A DNA stretch of 13,936 bases from Candidatus Heimdallarchaeota archaeon. Its GTDB lineage: Archaea; Asgardarchaeota; Heimdallarchaeia; Hodarchaeales; Hodarchaeaceae. Shown here one piece after another: positions 5,000 to 13,431 of this stretch (position 1 is the stretch's first letter; each line of letters starts with the position of its first letter). The stretch covers positions 252,026 through 265,961 of the forward strand of contig RDOB01000001.1 in NCBI GenBank assembly GCA_011364965.1, given 5' to 3'. Under the pieces are notes generated by a model. It did no database searches. It worked only from the letters and a program-made list of their open reading frames with translations, and was not told the DNA's origin. A program made the position numbers and the translations under genes.

Positions 5000-5039
5000 C
5001 CAAGACCAGCTGGATTCTCATTTTTTTTATTAGGAGGTG
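5000..5039 (-). repeat. Degenerate copy A of the 16S 3'-end/trailer element
   Basis: + strand CCAAGACCAGCTGGAT (5000-5015) is identical to 6316-6331. TATTAGGAGGTG (5028-5039) is identical to 12157-12168, the 16S anti-SD end plus the first trailer bases. Confidence 0.75.
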
Positions 5040-5154
5040 CGTTGGGTAACCATTCTCACTTTTATTCAACATGTCCTTCTTCAGATTTGGAGAAAGATGA
5101 TTATAACAATCACCCCAAGATAATATCGTTATAAAGAATTAAGAAATTGGCGGA

Positions 5155-5868: not shown

Positions 5869-6293
5869 TTTTTTCCCCTAACACTTTATATTCAGTTGTT
5901 TGCTAATAATTCCAAAGATGGATTTGTGTCATATTAACAATATTGAGAAGAATTGATTTTATCCAATAAAAGAATATTAGAATTCACTCCGAGCTTTTAG
6001 ATATCTCCAAATCCATGGAATCCATGAATTAGATCATTTCACAATTTATAAATGTATCTAAGGCTGACTCTCTTCTATCAATTAAATAATAATGTTCTCA
6101 TATAACAAATATGAAAAAATATACTTTTATTTGTGAATTGAGTTAACTAGAGAAATGAGAATGAGTTTTTCGCATAAAGATATCTTCAATTACCTTTCAG
6201 AATTTAATAATGAGGGTGAGATAAGTGACATGCTCTCAGGGGAGTTGTGAGTCCCAATAAACTCCAGATTTAAACCCTTGCAGGGAAAGGATC

Positions 6294-6465
6294 GACCTCG
6301 GCCTCATGATTGAAGCCAAGACCAGCTGGATATTCCCAATAGATTCAGGAAATTTTCTGTTCATCAGGTTTTTCTCTTCGATCAACCGATGTGGATCGAA
6401 AATATCCCATTCATGTCGTTAGGCTGTGGATTTGCCATACAAGAACCCAAAAAACCTATTAGAAA
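6294..6465 (-). repeat. Degenerate copy B of the 16S trailer element (structured)
   Basis: 6301-6332 matches 12073-12104 at 30/32. It has a 13-bp hairpin at 6294-6323. A 13-bp stem (6333-6345 with 6453-6465) is homologous to the stem at 12132-12165. Confidence 0.85.
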
Positions 6466-6702
6466 AGAAAAAATAAGCCATATATTAGTTAATCAAATTA
6501 AATAAGGAATTTAATTTCCTCTTTAAAGGATTTTTTCGGTCTCCTACTATTTCTACCTCATAGATTACGACACTAAGGTTACTATCAACATTTTAGCTGC
6601 TAATGGTGAATGTTGTTTGAATGATTGCCAAAGATATACATATAAATAACCGAATTCCAGGTCATTACCGAGACAAAGCAACTCAATCTGTTCAGTATAA
6701 AA

Positions 6703-6933
6703 GTGAATCAAATGAGATTCCATATTCCCCAACGAAGGTTAGAAGGTATTAGAAAAGATATTGAGGCATTAGCACATACAGGGATTTCTTCTTTAGAAAC
6801 AGGAGTTGATATGACTACGGATATAATGACTCTTTTTATAGATCGAATTCGAGCAGAGAACCCTACTTTAACAGAACCAGAAATTTTAAACCATGCTCGT
6901 GAATACATTTATCTTGGTCGGTCGAACTCTTGA
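6703..6933 (+). CDS. Putative antitoxin, MenA1 (Rv0078B)-like small helical protein
   Basis: 76 aa with 'RIRAENPTLTEPEI', resembling my recollection of MenA1-type antitoxins. Overlaps the downstream NTase start by 4 nt (TTGA). Confidence 0.6.
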   Translation: MNQMRFHIPQRRLEGIRKDIEALAHTGISSLETGVDMTTDIMTLFIDRIRAENPTLTEPEILNHAREYIYLGRSNS

Positions 6934-7499
6934 CTGTTGATGTTAAACTGAAGGATTTTATTCAGACTACGATAAGCTGTTTAGAAGAAAGCAGAATAAA
7001 ATATGTTTTAGTGGGTGGAGTAGCAGCTCTTATTTATGGCCGTCCTCGTACAACTCTTGATGTCGATATAGTGATAGATAGTGCTAATATTGAGGATGTT
7101 AAGAGATTAGAAACAACTTTGAAAGCCTATGGATTCTCATTACGAGATAATGAAATAGCTGAAGCACTAGGGGAAAAATCAAACTGTTCTGTCTTTCTAA
7201 AAGATTGTATCTATCGAATTGACATTCAGGGTACTTACTCACCTTTAGATTCCCGGTGTTTAAACAATCGATTATTGATGAAGATCTATGAACAAGACAC
7301 CTATATCCAGAAAGCAGAAGATTTAATTGTAGCAAAATTGGTCTATAGAAGCCCACAAGATTATGAAGATGTTCATGCTATCTTACTTCGGCAAAAGGAG
7401 AAATTAGATTACAATTACTTGAGATCCGTTGCTGCAATAGAGGGGATTGAAAGGCAATTAGATAAAATCCTATCTAGACTGAAAATCAAACCTATGTAA
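6930..7499 (+). CDS. Nucleotidyltransferase toxin-like protein (DUF6036 / MenT1 / AbiEii-like)
   Basis: YVLVGGVAALIYGRPRTTLDVDIV (GG...DxD NTase motif), EDLIVAKL and QDYEDV C-terminal motifs. Confidence 0.85.
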   Translation: MTVDVKLKDFIQTTISCLEESRIKYVLVGGVAALIYGRPRTTLDVDIVIDSANIEDVKRLETTLKAYGFSLRDNEIAEALGEKSNCSVFLKDCIYRIDIQGTYSPLDSRCLNNRLLMKIYEQDTYIQKAEDLIVAKLVYRSPQDYEDVHAILLRQKEKLDYNYLRSVAAIEGIERQLDKILSRLKIKPM

Positions 7500-7889
7500 A
7501 AAACATGAAAAAGACTAAGAGCGGACAGACAACAGACCTACAGCTCTGAGAAGGCTTAGATAGGGAGGAGAGCAACAATAAGAGAGACTATGGAGACTCC
7601 AACGAGAGATAGAGGCGAGAGGAAGAAGCATTCAGAGAAAATACAAAAAGAAAGAAATAATGATTGAGTATTTCGTTGAGATCGATTCTCTTGTAAGAGA
7701 AGAGAATCAAAATACACTTCCAAACTAATTAAATCAGGTTGATTCGGAATATAGAGAGATTTTTAACTACTAATAAGAAAATGATATAGTTTGTTAACGA
7801 TAGTTTTATAAATGAAAACATTGTACAATGATTTGAGAATTATTTGTAGACTAGCAGGTTAATAATAATATAAAAAACGTGACTAAAAG

Positions 7890-8204
7890 ATGAAAACAAC
7901 AGAAAAAGCCACAAAAGTATCACGAGCGAAAAGAATCTTAGAAGGGGAGAAACAACGGAGACATCTACTATTCTTAATAGAAGATAACCCAGGATTAACA
8001 GCGTACCAAATCTCACAGCGATTAGGATGGACAAGAGGGAAGGTAACCTATCATTTGAACAAACTCACCAACCAAGGAGAGCTCAGAAAAACAAGTATAG
8101 AAAATAACCCTCATCCCAAAAAAGTCTACCATATAGTCAAGTGGGAGAAGATGATAAACTGGGGTACCATTCCAGAGGAACAGAAGCCGAAAAAAACTAA
8201 GTAA
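7890..8204 (+). CDS. Winged helix-turn-helix transcriptional regulator (ArsR/HTH_24-like)
   Basis: IEDNPGLTAYQISQRLGWTRGKVTYHLNKLTNQGEL. Confidence 0.85.
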   Translation: MKTTEKATKVSRAKRILEGEKQRRHLLFLIEDNPGLTAYQISQRLGWTRGKVTYHLNKLTNQGELRKTSIENNPHPKKVYHIVKWEKMINWGTIPEEQKPKKTK

Positions 8205-8239
8205 ATAAGAAAAAGGGCAGGAAAACGCTCTTTAGCGAC

Positions 8240-8488
8240 CTAAATCCCTACCTCTGTTGGATAGTAAGTTACGCCTCCAGCTGTAGGGTGAGCTCTAAGT
8301 AACCCTTGAGCTACAAGAGACTTCAAAGGTTTTTTCAGCTTCCATTGCGCACGAGGCACAAGTTTTTTGCGAATACTCTCCATAGGAATATGCATGTTCA
8401 TCCGTGAGTCTAACAGCGAATAAGCAGCAAAAAGTACAGCGACTTCTTTTTGCGTTAAACGATCATCAGGTACAATACCAGTACTCAA
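8240..8488 (-). CDS. Small winged-helix protein
   Basis: LKSLVAQGLLRAHP...TYYPTEVG wing motif. GAGGAG precedes the TTG start, and a TTTATAT box lies at ~8531-8537 on the minus strand. Confidence 0.65.
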   Translation of the reverse strand: MSTGIVPDDRLTQKEVAVLFAAYSLLDSRMNMHIPMESIRKKLVPRAQWKLKKPLKSLVAQGLLRAHPTAGGVTYYPTEVGI

Positions 8489-8561
8489 GCTCCTCTAATC
8501 CTCCATCTCGAGTATCAATTGAGGGTGGACATATAAACATTTTGGTCAGAAAAATACTCTA

Positions 8562-8588
8562 AAGCCACTAAGAGCTGCTGGATAATCC
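8562..8588 (-). repeat. Possible highly degenerate copy D of the trailer core
   Basis: 8570-8588 AAGAGCTGCTGGATAATCC matches 6318-6336 AAGACCAGCTGGATATTCC at 16/19 and is preceded by AAGCC. Intergenic and in the same orientation, but the 13-bp hairpin is not evident. Confidence 0.35.
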
Positions 8589-8665
8589 TGAGATAGTTCC
8601 TGAAAGGAATCTAGCAAGTATCAGCTACATTTTCAACATCTAGGTCATAAATCCTTCTAATTCGC

Positions 8666-9277
8666 TCACTCTTCACGTTTCCTTCTGCGCGGAATGTTAA
8701 TCAAAACAAGGAATCCAAGAATTAGAAATTCCAAAGTGAATGCAGGAGTCGCCTGTGGGGGAATATGGTAATCTGATACATCAGTCCAAGGGGTGCGTAG
8801 ACCTAATGAAGGAACTCCCTCACTAATCACTCCAAAATCAATGAGAGTTTCGTCCACCAGAACTTGAAGATTAGTTTTATACGTGCAACGAGGGATGGTA
8901 GTGAAATTGTAAGACCAATACCGCAAGGGATGAAGAGTTACCGGTAGATCACTCACATTTAGAAGGATAATTTGACTCAAAAATTCAGTTCTATTCGTTT
9001 CATGGGTTCCAGAGAATGTCACATTCACCTGCTCAAGACGATGGGATTCTACATCCAAATTAGCAATAGCAAGGGTGAAAAAATCCAACGTGATCGTATC
9101 CCAGCATGTTTCATTAATACATCCTCCACACCAGCTGTATTCATGATCAGGAACCCGAATCTGGATAATAGATGAATTGGGAGGAGCTGTAGCAGGAATG
9201 GGACGACCGTGGACAATTAAAAGGAAAAGTAACGGTATAATACTCCATTTAAAAACAAATGAACAGCTTTGATTCAT
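8666..9277 (-). CDS. Secreted/cell-surface protein with C-terminal sorting signal (PGF-CTERM/Heimdall-CTERM-like)
   Basis: Signal peptide, GGCINETCWD motif, and C-terminus TPAF-TLEFLILGFLVLINIP-RRRKREE. Confidence 0.8.
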   Translation of the reverse strand: MNQSCSFVFKWSIIPLLFLLIVHGRPIPATAPPNSSIIQIRVPDHEYSWCGGCINETCWDTITLDFFTLAIANLDVESHRLEQVNVTFSGTHETNRTEFLSQIILLNVSDLPVTLHPLRYWSYNFTTIPRCTYKTNLQVLVDETLIDFGVISEGVPSLGLRTPWTDVSDYHIPPQATPAFTLEFLILGFLVLINIPRRRKREE

Positions 9278-9322
9278 CGTTATTCTCCTAAATTATCCTT
9301 ATTTCATTAATCATGTTACATA

Positions 9323-10309
9323 TTAAGGTTTTATAAAGATAATCACGGAAAAAGAAGGGAAATAAAGAGACTTACTGTCTTTCACTCCATCGAATTTTAT
9401 CTCATATTGCACTATCCAATCAAAGGTTATTGGATGTATTCTCACACTTTCATATTTGTTATCCCAGGTTTCTGCGCCGTCCATGATAACAGCTTCGATG
9501 TTAGGGTAGATAGTGGCGTTGTAGAGGTCTATTGCAGCATAGAGATGACAAATCTCATGAAGGATTGCACATTTCGTGCCAAATAATGGATTCTCCTCAA
9601 AATACACCCACCACTGAATGTATACGTATGTTCCTCTTGATACAGCCAAACAGCTTCCACAATATTCTTGTGCTTGAAAAGCTAACCCTATATCAAATCC
9701 ATGATTTTTCGGGGAGATCCCATAGGAATTGATCGTATAAATCGCATTTCAATCCCAATAATATTCAGAAAGATTTAATGCACAAGCTAACGCGTGTCTA
9801 CCATCATTAAAATAAGCATTAGTATTCCCCAACATCGCTGGATTCCAATCAAAGACAACTAAAGGCATAAATTGTTGATCTAATAGCTCAAATAACCCTT
9901 GAGACCAGTTATAGCCATTAGACATATTAGAGATTTTTAAGTTGTTGACATCAGCGATAAGCCCGTAGATATCCGTCCCATTGTCATCTAATATGGCTGA
10001 GAAATTACTTTCCAACATAATGGTTTGATAAACAATGTGTTTGGTGAGATTTTGCAGGATAGTGAACTCACTGTTAGCTGGTGCGCTAAGAGAATACCCC
10101 CAATCCTCACTAGCAGAGTAAATGTCCGTCACATCGTAGTTGCCAACGTTGAGAGCAAACCACCCATCCCAGGTAGAGCCTGAATAATCACTAGTGCCTT
10201 CAAAAACTTTAGGTATAACAATATCTGGGAGGAGGGGGATTTGTGTAGTAGATAACATCAGATCAGCGTGTACGATAGCCTGAGGAGAAATATCCAAATG
10301 AATGACCAA
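9323..10309 (-). pseudogene. Zinc metalloprotease (metzincin-like) reading frame interrupted by one in-frame TGA
   Basis: ORFs 9749-10309 and 9323-9649 are in the same frame. After the TGA (9749-9751) the frame reads NAIYTINSYGISPKNHGFDIGLAFQAQEYCGSCLAV without stops into the second ORF. It contains HEICHLYAAIDLY (HExxH...D) and a downstream IMD putative Met-turn. The true 5' end is uncertain. Confidence 0.75.
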
Positions 10310-10760
10310 TTATTCCATAATTTATCACAGTTTCATCGATTAACAACTGGACAGAAATGGTGGAAATACAACGGGGTAACCGCGTAAAATTACCCTGTCA
10401 GTAATAATGGGGATAGAGGACTACAGGAAGGTCTTTTGTGTCATTCAATATAATTTGGACAGTAAACGGAGCTTTATCTGTTTCATTAACCCCCTTGAAA
10501 GTTAATGTCACCTGTTCTAGAGTATGAACCTCAGTATCAAGGTTGACAACTATGAGTGCAAAATATGTGACTGTAATATAATCCCAACAATCTGTTCCAT
10601 TAATACAGCCTCCAGAATACCCTGATTCTGATTCAGGTATGCAAATACCAATTACTGACGAATCAGGAGGAGAAAGCACCGAAACGGGGGTAATCCCAAA
10701 CGAAATAAGGAAGTATATACTCAAGACCCAGTATAATTTTAGAAAATGCTTATGATTCAC
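10209..10760 (-). pseudogene. Paralog of the 8666-9277 protein with two in-frame TGA codons and no C-terminal anchor
   Basis: Homology continues past the ORF stop: HYY*QGNFTRLPRCISTISVQLLIDETVINYGII...GYRTR*SDVIYYTNPP versus LRYWSYNFTTIPRCTYKTNLQVLVDETLIDFGVI...GLRTPWTDVSDYHIPP. Ends at TAA 10209-10211. Confidence 0.85.
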
Positions 10761-10916
10761 TTAAGTCTCAATCCCAATTACTTTTTACCGTACAGGCTCG
10801 TTTTATACGGTTTACTAGAACCAAAAAGAGAACGAGAGAGCCTTATTTGTACATATAAGTCAAGGATATTAGCCTTAAGGAGGAGGTTGGTATATAAAAA
10901 CTTCTATGAAAAATCA

Positions 10917-11250
10917 TCAAGCATTTATGCGCGTTTTACGGATACTATACAGAATGACACCCAAAATCAGGGGAACAACTAGGAAACCAGAATTGGGGTG
11001 AGAACTAGTAGAAGAGGAAGATTGGTTACGTAATTCTAGCCATCTAGTAATATTGCTGACATAGAGGTGGCCTGTTCCTACATTGATGAAATAACCTAGG
11101 CGTATTATTTTAGTTTCTGGTGGAAGGTAAAAACATCGACTACCAATAGAATGTATTCTTCTTGCTTGTCCATATATTCACATGGACACGGATTAATTTC
11201 CTATCAACTCGTTCTGTAAATTCCAATGCTTGTTTCCAATCCCTTTAGTA
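10917..11250 (-). pseudogene. 3' remnant of a surface-protein gene with C-terminal sorting signal (not in ORF track)
   Basis: Minus frame ...FYLPPETKIIRLGYFINVGTGHLYVSNITRWLELRNQSSSSTSSHPNSGFLVVPLILGVILYSIRKTRINA*. The upstream part is broken by stops or a frameshift near 11140-11195. The 5' limit is approximate. Confidence 0.6.
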
Positions 11251-11313
11251 TAAATTCAACCGACCAGAGTAAGTGGGGATGTAAGGCGATTATATAAATG
11301 AAATTTATCAGCA

Positions 11314-11730
11314 TTAAGCTGTATACGTGAAATAAGAGAGCTTAAATAGCTTTTCAGAGAAGAAAAAATAGTTAGGAAAATCATCCCAATTCCAGTGATC
11401 CGCAAATGCTTCCAAGGTCTCAAATTCAGTATAAGTTACATCTTTCCAACTTTCGTTTTTAGAATCGTTAGATATGAGTTTGAGAACCATGGTATAAAGA
11501 AAGGGGACTGAATCGAAGTCAGAAGCAGTAAGATTAACAACAGAGTTAGTATTCATTTCAGAATTACTAATTCTAGTAAGTACAAGCATATATTGGATCG
11601 GTCCTCCGACGTCAGGAGCAAACAACATCATGCAAAGAAAAATACTTCCACAAAATGCAGAGAACGTGATAATACAAATTAAACTGGAAAAGATCACCTT
11701 TTTTTTGCCAACCAGATTCAACGTAATCAC
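11314..11730 (-). CDS. Membrane-anchored hypothetical protein
   Basis: 138 aa: KKK plus an N-terminal TM helix, then a small soluble domain (VVNLTASDFDSVPFL). Confidence 0.7.
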   Translation of the reverse strand: MITLNLVGKKKVIFSSLICIITFSAFCGSIFLCMMLFAPDVGGPIQYMLVLTRISNSEMNTNSVVNLTASDFDSVPFLYTMVLKLISNDSKNESWKDVTYTEFETLEAFADHWNWDDFPNYFFFSEKLFKLSYFTYTA

Positions 11731-11854
11731 GTATATCTAATAATTCAAATTCAATAAACCTAATTGGTCAAAGGGATTAATATAGCTATTGACTAGAGAA
11801 AGAGACGAAGGATAAAGAGTGCAAATTTTCAAAACCTAGACTTTGAATCAATCA

Positions 11855-12019
11855 CTAATTAATAATTCTATTTACTCAAGATGGTCCATCAAAGTACTCA
11901 ATATAGGTAGTGACGTCATCATCTGTATCCTCATGTAAATACCAACCACTAAAAACAATTGTTGAACTCATAATATAACCAAGACCGCCAACATGTCCTC
12001 CTCCGTTAATTGCATGGAA
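11855..12019 (-). pseudogene. Possible gene remnant (extracellular beta-rich fragment)
   Basis: Frame FHAINGGGHVGGLGYIMSSTIVFSGWYLHEDTDDDVTTYIEYFDGPS*VNRIIN* looks protein-like but has no clear start. Confidence 0.35.
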
Positions 12020-12049
12020 TTAAAGATTGACTCATGCATTTATCACCAA

Positions 12050-12160
12050 AAACAAGAAAAATCTAGGCCCCAGCCTCAGGATTGAAGCCAGGACCAGCTG
12101 GATAGCCAAGCTCGAAACCTCGAACCTGCTTCTCCCAATAGATGTGAATCTATATCTATT
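12050..12160 (-). ncRNA. Structured 3' trailer of the 16S fragment (copy C): three hairpins and a U-rich end
   Basis: Stem 12154-12165/12132-12143 (12 bp, overlaps the anti-SD), hairpin 12104-12130, 13-bp hairpin 12066-12095, then TTTTTCTTGTTTTT. G-U pairs favour a minus-strand RNA. Confidence 0.65.
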
Positions 12161-12305
12161 AGGAGGTGAGTACTGTCCCAGAGCGGCGTACTCGGGAAAT
12201 CCAGCCGCAGGTTCCCCTACAGCTACCTTGTTACGACTTCAGCCTACTCAACAAGAGTACCATCGAATACGATATTATCCTGTAGCCTCTAGCAGATCCG
12301 TCTCG
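12161..12305 (-). rRNA. rrs: Isolated 3'-terminal fragment of archaeal 16S rRNA (h44 from ~1416, h45, anti-SD) containing an intron
   Basis: Minus strand ...TGAGTAGGCTGAAGTCGTAACAAGGTAGCTGTAGGGGAACCTGCGGCTGGA[30 nt]TCACCTCCT. Upstream CGAG-ACGGATCTGCTA-GAGGC...TTCGA-TGGTACTCTTGT-TGA fits helix 44. The universal CACACCGCCCGTC and everything 5' of it are absent from the adjacent sequence. Confidence 0.93.
12170..12199 (-). other. 30-nt bulge-helix-bulge (BHB)-type rRNA intron
   Basis: Insert TTTCCCGAGTACGCCGCTCTGGGACAGTAC between GGA and TCACCTCCT. Central 4-bp helix GCUG/CAGU, 3-nt bulges GA^U and AC^U, and intron stem UCCCGAG/CUC(U)GGGA. Cutting after the second bulge nucleotide on each strand restores GGCUGGAUCACCUCCU exactly. 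Confidence 0.8.
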
Positions 12306-12348: not shown

Positions 12349-12381
12349 AGGAAAAGAAGGAAAAAAAGCGGATAAACTCCG
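12349..12381 (-). terminator. Putative terminator of the 330-aa gene
   Basis: Minus strand CGGA-GTTTA-TCCG-C-TTTTTTT-CCTTCTTTT. Confidence 0.55.
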
Positions 12382-12438: not shown

Positions 12439-13431
12439 TCACTCCTCAAGTCTTTTGAGCATTCCAAAAAAAATCAAAACAAGAAGCAAGGAGCAGAGGA
12501 AAATTATCTGAAAAAAACGAGTTCCAGAAGGGAATGAAACCATTGGATTAGAAGAATGGACGGAAGACAGGGAAGAAGTATGGTGATTACTTATTATTTC
12601 ATAAGTATAATTAAGAAGAGATTCAAAAAAGTATTTGGCACATAAAGAAACGTAAATTCGTTGCCCTGTGCCACTATCGTTATCTATTGTCGTCCAAATA
12701 TAATCAATCGAACCATCCCACTGAGTTCTCAGACTTAAAATGGTTCCTCCTTTGTTAAGAAGACCAGTATGAGAAGGAGAATAAATCCAGAACTGCCAAT
12801 CACGTGAAGAATTTACTTGAAGGTAATTTTCAAACAATGTCCAAACAGCGGAATCAAAGGTAACAGTAAAAGAGAAGGAGCGATTATACGGATATAGGGA
12901 GGGAGGAACTCCAGCAATAACTTCATAATCGATTAAAACGGTACAATCATCAAAGTAAATGGCCTCTAAAAAAGTTCGTGATTCTGAATCATTTAGATAC
13001 CACTCATACGTGAGTTCCATACGAGTGAGTTCTTCTAAATCCTGATAATAACGAACCCACATAATGTCATAGGTAAAGAAATTAGATCCATTAATAGATA
13101 GTGAGACAAAACCAGTCTGTTCTTCTGATGGAGGAGAATCAGGGGTTTCTATCCAAAAAAGGAAAGGTTCACTATCAGTGAGGGAGGGAAAAATAAGAAG
13201 GGAGGAGAAAAATCCCCAAGAGGTATTGATCGTAACATTATGAGTGAAATACCTTGAATAAAAACCAATTGGAAATGAGGAATCTTTGATTAGGTCAGTA
13301 GCAAACCAGTAGACCTCTAAATCATCATTTGGGACAGAAATTGTAGGAGAAGGGAGAGTCATGATGCTTCCAGCCCAGATGAGGGTTAAAAGCACAAAAG
13401 AAAGGAAATTTAGTGACTTTCTTGGATACAC
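12439..13431 (-). CDS. Cell-surface hypothetical protein (signal peptide, Ser-rich linker, C-terminal TM plus basic tail)
   Basis: 330 aa with a hydrophobic N-terminus, many NxS/T sequons, and C-terminus SFP...FFQIIFLCSLLLVLIFFGMLKRLEE. Confidence 0.8.
   Translation of the reverse strand: MYPRKSLNFLSFVLLTLIWAGSIMTLPSPTISVPNDDLEVYWFATDLIKDSSFPIGFYSRYFTHNVTINTSWGFFSSLLIFPSLTDSEPFLFWIETPDSPPSEEQTGFVSLSINGSNFFTYDIMWVRYYQDLEELTRMELTYEWYLNDSESRTFLEAIYFDDCTVLIDYEVIAGVPPSLYPYNRSFSFTVTFDSAVWTLFENYLQVNSSRDWQFWIYSPSHTGLLNKGGTILSLRTQWDGSIDYIWTTIDNDSGTGQRIYVSLCAKYFFESLLNYTYEIISNHHTSSLSSVHSSNPMVSFPSGTRFFQIIFLCSLLLVLIFFGMLKRLEE

Follow-up and report, generated by a model that had tools for sequence, protein, structure and literature searches.

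Two questions are raised by a 30-nt sequence that lies between helix 45 (h45) and the anti-Shine-Dalgarno (anti-SD) end of a 16S rRNA sequence in a Candidatus Heimdallarchaeota genome: is it a BHB mini-intron, and does it act in ribosome assembly at this locus? A sequence-only reading had proposed both. The DNA analyzed is a stretch of 13,936 nt (GenBank assembly GCA_011364965.1, contig RDOB01000001.1), referred to below as the window. The features that frame the question are the following.

12161 to 12169, minus strand: 3' exon UCACCUCCU, the anti-SD end of 16S.
12170 to 12199, minus strand: 30-nt insert, a putative BHB mini-intron copy (RNA UUUCCCGAGUACGCCGCUCUGGGACAGUAC), absent from same-genus 16S genes, in BHB register and present in independent assemblies.

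The insert lies between GGCUGGA and UCACCUCCU, following E. coli A1531 (between 1531 and 1532). As minus-strand RNA, positions 12215 to 12155 read ...GGAACCUGCGGCUGGA, then the 30 nt, then UCACCUCCUAAUAG. On this strand, the sense strand of the rRNA, the 5' exon reads ...GAAGUCGUAACAAGGUAGCUGUAGGGGAACCUGCGGCUGGA, with the insert running from 12199 down to 12170 and UCACCUCCUAAUAG following it. Four 16S genes of the same genus carry an uninterrupted GGCUGGAUCACCUCC, so deletion of 12199-12170 restores the universal 16S 3' end exactly, and excision of the insert is predicted to give GGA+UCACCUCC. The insert and its junctions recur at 99.9-100% identity in independent Logan assemblies of other runs (L089, L092), and four DNA runs, drawn from four studies, contained no joint lacking the insert. 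These agreements show that the insert is no assembly artefact: the observation of a 30-nt insert at A1531 is confirmed.

To describe the BHB we used the canonical topology, in which the central helix, H, pairs 5' exon positions -6 to -3 with intron positions -6 to -3; the cut in each 3-nt bulge falls after the second nucleotide. Applied to the window, this register gives the parts below (a slash marks the predicted cut).

12202 to 12205, minus strand: H1 (GCUG), contributed by the exon to the central 4-bp helix and also the 3' strand of h45.
12172 to 12175, minus strand: H2, the intron half of the central helix (CAGU).
12201, 12200 / 12199: 5' bulge, G,A / U.
12171, 12170 / 12169: 3' bulge, A,C / U.
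12176 to 12198, minus strand: intron stem-loop h', with arms 12198-12190 and 12184-12176 and a 5-nt loop, ACGCC.

All four pairs of the central helix GCUG/CAGU can form, one of them G.U. Stem h' starts at intron nucleotide 2; its first 4 bp join 12198-12195 with 12179-12176, and its pairs in order are U-A, U.G, C-G, C-G, a C.U mismatch, G-C, A-U, G-C and U.G. The exon-side helix, h, consists of G-C, a mismatch and G-C, and nothing more. Both exons are universal sequence, so this helix cannot form, and the motif is therefore of the relaxed HBh' type. This agrees with the sequence-only reading, which had described BHB geometry with a weak exon-side helix and cut sites that regenerate the universal end; both points hold in the canonical register, and the same-genus genes are indeed uninterrupted. 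When the insert was shuffled 200,000 times, H with 4/4 pairs together with an h' of at least 4 bp arose at a frequency of 0.0015.

Folding predictions depend on how much of h45 is included. For the 61-nt piece, which lacks the 5' strand of h45, the RNAfold minimum contains H and h' as in the canonical register, the register differing in its 5' bulge, which is 4 nt. When the 5' strand of h45 is added, the minimum-energy fold forms h45 and the BHB is absent. The BHB and h45 are mutually exclusive, because the BHB takes the 3' strand of h45 and the fold with the 5' strand present is h45. It had been argued that splicing would require this strand to be unfolded, and the exclusion of one fold by the other agrees with that, H1 being the strand in question. 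With h45 as the predicted minimum-energy fold, BHB formation in vivo would need explanation, a point that weighs against the reading we prefer below. As for the enzymes, the host genome encodes two EndA paralogues (PF01974) on C13, in the regions 74167-74421 and 105545-105805, and RtcB on C9.

The sequence-only reading had called for a search of other 16S genes for gapped 3' ends. Our gapped-pattern scans covered one genome per prokaryotic species and JGI metagenomes, and then 400 genomes of the phylum, and they returned same-site inserts from other lineages, in complete 16S genes. At this site (GGA/UCACC), a Thorarchaeota MAG (L038) has a 30-nt insert, and five metagenome contigs of a third lineage (L048, L050, L060, L073 and L077) have a 31-nt insert. 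L038 and L077 are complete 16S genes according to Rfam, and L077 adjoins a complete 23S. The scans also found inserts at other sites. After 1527 (GCGGA/UGGAUC), inserts of 31-32 nt occur in about nine distinct sequences from 'Candidatus Heimdallarchaeota' MAGs and metagenomes, and one contig with two 16S genes has the 1527 insert in both. After 1499 (GUCGUA/ACAAGG, just upstream of AACAAGG), L025 (at ~100-157) and L061 have 32-nt inserts with H GUCG/CGAU. A sample contig has a 33-nt insert with H GCUG/CGGU after 1513, a site in the 5' strand of h45 that corresponds to the point between window positions 12217 and 12218.

All inserts at 1499, 1513, 1527 and 1531 have 4/4 H pairs in the canonical register, 3-nt bulges and a stem that starts from intron nucleotide 2. 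Those at 1499, 1513 and 1527 each have their own exon-complementary 4-mer, at -6 to -3, and the chance of H plus h' estimated by shuffling is 0.0006-0.002 per insert. The 1531 site shows covariation at H3: the L077 lineage has C-G there, in a helix of GCCG with CGGC, and U-A occurs in Thor and in both the window insert and its strain variant, where GCUG pairs with CAGU or CAGC. Conservation of the 4-bp helix and 3-nt bulges in homologous inserts had been named as the feature to look for, and both are kept, with the exon base covarying. The strain variant of the window insert (runs X10 and X12), rebuilt from the difference tables of these runs rather than read as one contig, has a perfect BHB with H2 CAGC and a 9-10-bp stem. 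Compared with the window h', it has three double compensatory pairs: G-C to U-A, A-U to G-C and G-C to A-U. Separately, a loose end in X3 at window position 12200 leads to another 16S end, with GGCUGGA followed by an unrelated sequence of ~35 nt (CAAAUUGAAUUG...), perhaps another allele of the intron at 1531.

The comparison supports assigning the window insert, by its sequence features, to a real class as a relaxed (HBh') BHB mini-intron between 1531 and 1532. From the homologues we infer that such inserts are spliced, which is the economical reading because a retained hairpin needs no exon-complementary 4-mer at a fixed 3' distance. The expectation that inserts of this kind would cut rRNA annotation short was also correct: in both L034 and L038 the Rfam SSU match ends within the insert or ahead of it, so that the 3' exon with the anti-SD is lost.

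Several other matches of the scans were set aside. Bacterial matches were false positives with a second CACCTCC inside the spacer, and a viral-contig match was a bacterial SSU gene. On L101 (6900-7949), an IMG/VR contig classed as viral, a bacterial SSU match spans 1533 model positions in 1050 nt. L034 and L046 were considered as tandem 3' ends and rejected, as two separate 16S genes lie on one contig. Neither the orphan fragment described next nor a 1531 insert was found in any other genome of the genus or order searched.

In the window, the insert interrupts an isolated piece of 16S.

12200 to 12305, minus strand: orphan 16S piece found by blastn, comprising helix 44 (h44) from ~E. coli 1416, the decoding-site AAGUCGUAACAAGG and h45 to A1531.
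12439 to 13431, minus strand: 330-aa ORF immediately upstream of the 16S piece, belonging to no known family; ordinary coding DNA.

The 16S in the window amounts to ~150 nt of the 3' end, from ~position 1416. No SSU rRNA reaches the Rfam gathering score in the window, nor does any in the assembly as a whole (2.97 Mb, 87% complete), and at E up to 10 the sole Rfam match is a 25-nt stretch of h45. In a blastn search of the genome with three 16S genes of the genus, only 12199-12305 matched, at 82-84% identity; the homology begins exactly at CGAGACGG, ~E. coli 1416. The assembly is scaffolded with gaps, and the host's real 16S is not in it. The window ends where the scaffold ends, and the independent contig L089 continues 2.9 kb beyond; this extra 2.9 kb contains no 16S and holds a 698-aa LVIVD-repeat gene, upstream of the 330-aa ORF, and three small ORFs. 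Ordinary protein genes occupy at least 4.6 kb upstream of the fragment. We rejected the 1.65 kb upstream as a large 16S intron because L089 adds 2.9 kb of ordinary genes and no 16S; the 330-aa ORF (12439-13431) was considered both as 16S and as a homing endonuclease and is neither.

The fragment is partly decayed. Its h44 has a minimum free energy of -18.5 kcal/mol (z -0.28). Among ten real 16S genes, nine have h44 energies of -24 to -44 kcal/mol (z -2.8 to -6.7), or -32 to -44 kcal/mol (z -4 to -6.7) without L002; the outlier among the ten is Thor L038, with z -0.21. Canonical pairs remain at 18/27 positions of the fragment h44, compared with 25-27/27 in the genus genes, and the homologous part contains three breaks in a row. 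Contigs in X3 and X4 match 12212-12305 at ~93% and then continue into ...CACACCGCCCGUCGCAGCACG, the canonical 1400 region. Coverage of these full-length 16S contigs is 1.5-3 times that of the orphan contig. The orphan has U at 12246, 12253 and 12272, where the X3/X4 contigs and the genus have C. The X3/X4 contigs imply that a complete 16S of the host or a very close population exists and that the orphan is drifting to A+T.

Not all of the fragment has changed to this degree. The universal GAAGUCG-to-GGA stretch (48 nt) differs at one position in the orphan, where h45 has a C-to-U wobble, and no change affects the anti-SD. This preservation exceeds what simple neutral decay would suggest and counts against our preferred explanation. 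On the minus strand, an oligo-T tract (12358-12366) follows the 330-aa ORF and is itself followed by a TATA-like TTATATTT (12327-12320), ~20 nt upstream of the first 16S-like base. The oligo-T tract and TATA-like box may be a terminator and promoter pair, and the orphan or the downstream block may be transcribed. ARAGORN found no tRNA in the trailer. The sequence-only reading had further suggested that splicing could gate anti-SD placement and small-subunit maturation. At the window locus this is not supported: the host is an orphan, part-decayed 3' end of 16S, the body of the gene is missing for at least 4.6 kb, and so the insert cannot gate maturation here.

Downstream of the anti-SD, the 16S trailer is part of a repeat family.

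12053 to 12160, minus strand: 16S trailer with a conserved AUCCAGCUGG element, shared with 16S trailers of the genus; its distal part is repeated.
6281 to 6332, minus strand: second trailer-repeat copy (79% over 52 nt), a direct repeat with 12053-12104.
5000 to 5042, minus strand: third copy, with the CACCUCCUAAUA and AUCCAGCUGG trailer core and no other 16S sequence.

All trailer-repeat copies are in one orientation. Co-oriented copies of the trailer-core CCAGCTGGAT split the region into blocks, at 12067-12069, 6281-6332, 5000-5042 and, weakly, 8568-8583. Contigs of other strains have a breakpoint at 12067/12069. The DNA from ~6296 to 12068 is a strain-specific insertion of ~5.8 kb, the far end of which is the 6281-6332 repeat. 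In a variant strain 12069 abuts a flank resembling 6276-6294, and this junction represents the empty site of the 5.8-kb block. Direct repeats of a gene end that bound inserted DNA and an empty-site allele are therefore both present. The window's left flank joins other DNA in variant strains. Right of 12067, other strains have a different sequence in place of the fragment, and a search of this genome did not turn it up. In X10 and X12, the region of the 330-aa ORF is uncovered and the variant insert is present, so the variant insert is not in the orphan context. No integrase, homing endonuclease or other informative family was found in the window or neighbouring ORFs using Pfam and PHROGs; because no recombinase was recognised, the mechanism of integration is one that we infer. 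Two other stretches of the window, 5064-5120 and 6956-7003, both intergenic, have counterparts at 895-951 and 1068-1115 of L089, as 48-57-nt repeats of 82-90% identity.

Isolated rRNA ends are not confined to 16S. The 23S of this genome is a 3' tail only, covering model positions 2721-2973 (~250 positions; G000:C12:515019-515329, minus strand). Same-genus relatives (G001, G002 and G008; L015, L018 and L019) have two isolated 23S tails each, 9-18 kb apart and in direct orientation. The 23S orphan tails parallel the 16S orphan pattern. In the single-contig genus genomes G007, G010 and G015 there was no SSU rRNA or 16S 3'-end pattern, and in G010 (96% complete, and the only one of the three searched with the LSU model) no LSU match. 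The rRNA genes of these three genomes may be missing, masked or heavily interrupted.

We consider it probable that the window insert is a genuine BHB mini-intron copy, left as a fossil in a decaying orphan 16S 3' fragment that stems from integration. In a working gene, the 3' end of the intron (CAGY) would pair with the 3' strand of h45 (GCUG), this pairing would present two 3-nt bulges to an (alpha-beta)2 EndA, and RtcB would rejoin GGA to UCACCUCC. The 16S 3' fragment and its trailer would have been duplicated, or carried along, as mobile DNA integrated behind 16S, and would now be decaying. The fossil copy would thus record a 1531 intron in a 16S gene of the lineage and exert no control of maturation at the locus. 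The absence of other 16S sequence from the 2.97-Mb assembly, the intact decoding-site, h45 and anti-SD nucleotides and the TATA-like box just upstream would also suit an active intron in a functional 3' end, the 150-nt piece being an exon of a split 16S that is joined or assembled in trans, with splicing gating the placement of the anti-SD. We think this very unlikely, given the degenerate h44 pairing and the presence in the same samples of a full-length 16S with a ~93% identical h44 at higher depth. Moreover, the assembly is 87% complete with gapped scaffolds, the trailer repeats and insertion polymorphism point to integration scars, and 23S tails are orphaned too, once here and twice in each of the relatives. 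It is unlikely, too, that the orphan with its insert has a function of its own, as a cassette recombination site or as an h45/anti-SD small RNA acting as a decoy or regulator. Such a function would account for a locus 99.9-100% conserved across assemblies from several sediment studies, for h45 and anti-SD that are well kept while h44 decays, for trailer cores that recur between gene blocks and for a terminator-like oligo-T and TATA-like box upstream; however, no recombinase was identified among the window ORFs, fragments like it are absent from the other genomes of the order, and the high identity across samples may reflect one population.

The remaining alternatives concern the insert rather than its host. 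If it were an expansion hairpin between h45 and the anti-SD that is retained and never spliced, the lack of a BHB in the minimum-energy fold with h45 would be expected, and expansion segments are a known trait of Asgard rRNAs (Penev et al., 2020, as cited in PMC12918454). However, a retained hairpin would need neither the exon-complementary 4-mer at -6 to -3 nor the 3-nt bulges, which are kept at four sites and covary, and pairing with the 3' strand of h45 would destabilise h45 in the mature ribosome; we regard this reading as very unlikely. A chance insertion or assembly artefact that resembles a BHB is extremely improbable and was disfavoured already. There is one copy, it is short and its motif is relaxed, but independent assemblies agree on it, the shuffle probability is 0.0015, and both same-site homologues in complete genes and a compensatory strain variant exist.

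Beyond the fossil-copy reading, a broader and speculative proposal can be made for the class. BHB introns of 30-33 nt at 1499, 1513, 1527 and 1531, all in the last 45 nt, use h45 or decoding-site strands, and their splicing would exclude folding of the 3' minor domain. EndA could then be an obligatory checkpoint, passed before h45 forms and before dimethylation and placement of the anti-SD, and the orphan might still be transcribed from the TATA-like promoter and cut. We offer this as a long shot. The competition between the BHB and h45 makes the order of folding and splicing testable. Introns at these four sites would implicate EndA in late small-subunit maturation in Asgard archaea, the closest prokaryotic relatives of eukaryotes. 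There are also practical consequences. Genes with such inserts are missed or cut short both by the usual 3' primers (the 1492R family and the AAGGAGGTGATCCAGCC site) and by annotation with covariance models, so that the annotated rRNA seems to be without an anti-SD. The window copy itself is a cautionary case: as a detached, decaying scrap beside integrated DNA, it informs on history and not on ribosome assembly at the locus.

Introns of this general kind have been described, none 3' of 1391 in the literature covered and most of them in thermophilic Thermoproteales. A 2015 catalogue lists 13 loci of 16S introns, from 374 to 1391, with hairpin-only introns of <50 nt at seven loci, including 901, 978 and 1205; hairpin-forming BHB 16S introns of <50 nt occur in Thermoproteales, Desulfurococcales and Aigarchaeota (Jay and Inskeep, 2015, PMC4496867). 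Like these short introns, the window insert has no ORF, is 30-odd nt long, forms a hairpin closed by a BHB and is located at a universally conserved primer site; cleavage by EndA and ligation by RtcB are presumed in both. Unlike them, it lies between 1531 and 1532, outside the 13 catalogued loci, in Asgard archaea from cold sediments. Its sister introns at 1499, 1513 and 1527 fall within the last 45 nt of the gene, its helix draws on the 3' strand of h45, and the window copy sits outside a complete gene. The sequence-only reading had raised the possibility that the position is new, and 1531 does lie 3' of all loci in the 2015 catalogue (374 to 1391). In the literature searched, which lay outside subscription journals, we found no published 16S introns 3' of 1391 and no Asgard or Thorarchaeota rRNA mini-introns. 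The intron sites from 1499 to 1531 are thus unmatched in the earlier reports found, and the class of short BHB 16S introns is already known.

The relaxed motif has a precedent in tRNA. Asgard EndA is reported to be a broad-specificity (alpha-beta)2 type with an L1 loop that permits relaxed HBh' substrates (PMC5829648). As in HBh' tRNA introns, the window motif lacks the exon-side helix, and the host lineage has a two-subunit EndA; unlike in those introns, the substrate is rRNA and cleavage is a prediction.

Partial 3' ends of genes are left at integration sites. In Heimdallarchaeum, elements are integrated right behind the 16S gene (HeimM2 and HeimV2; Wu et al., 2022, PMC8813620). The window resembles these in having foreign gene blocks behind a 16S 3' end, with trailer repeats as bounds and a 5.8-kb block that is present or absent depending on the strain. 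It differs in the length of the duplicated piece, which is ~240 nt here, from 1416 through the trailer, in that no integrase or homing endonuclease was recognised and in that the intact gene lies outside the assembly. Archaeal pre-16S rRNA also has a BHB in its processing stem, formed by pairing of leader and trailer, which yields circular pre-rRNA. The enzyme, the logic of the motif and the location at the 16S 3' end are the same as for the insert. In contrast to the processing-stem BHB, which is outside the mature rRNA, the insert is inside the mature sequence, and its removal would restore GGAUCACCUCC.
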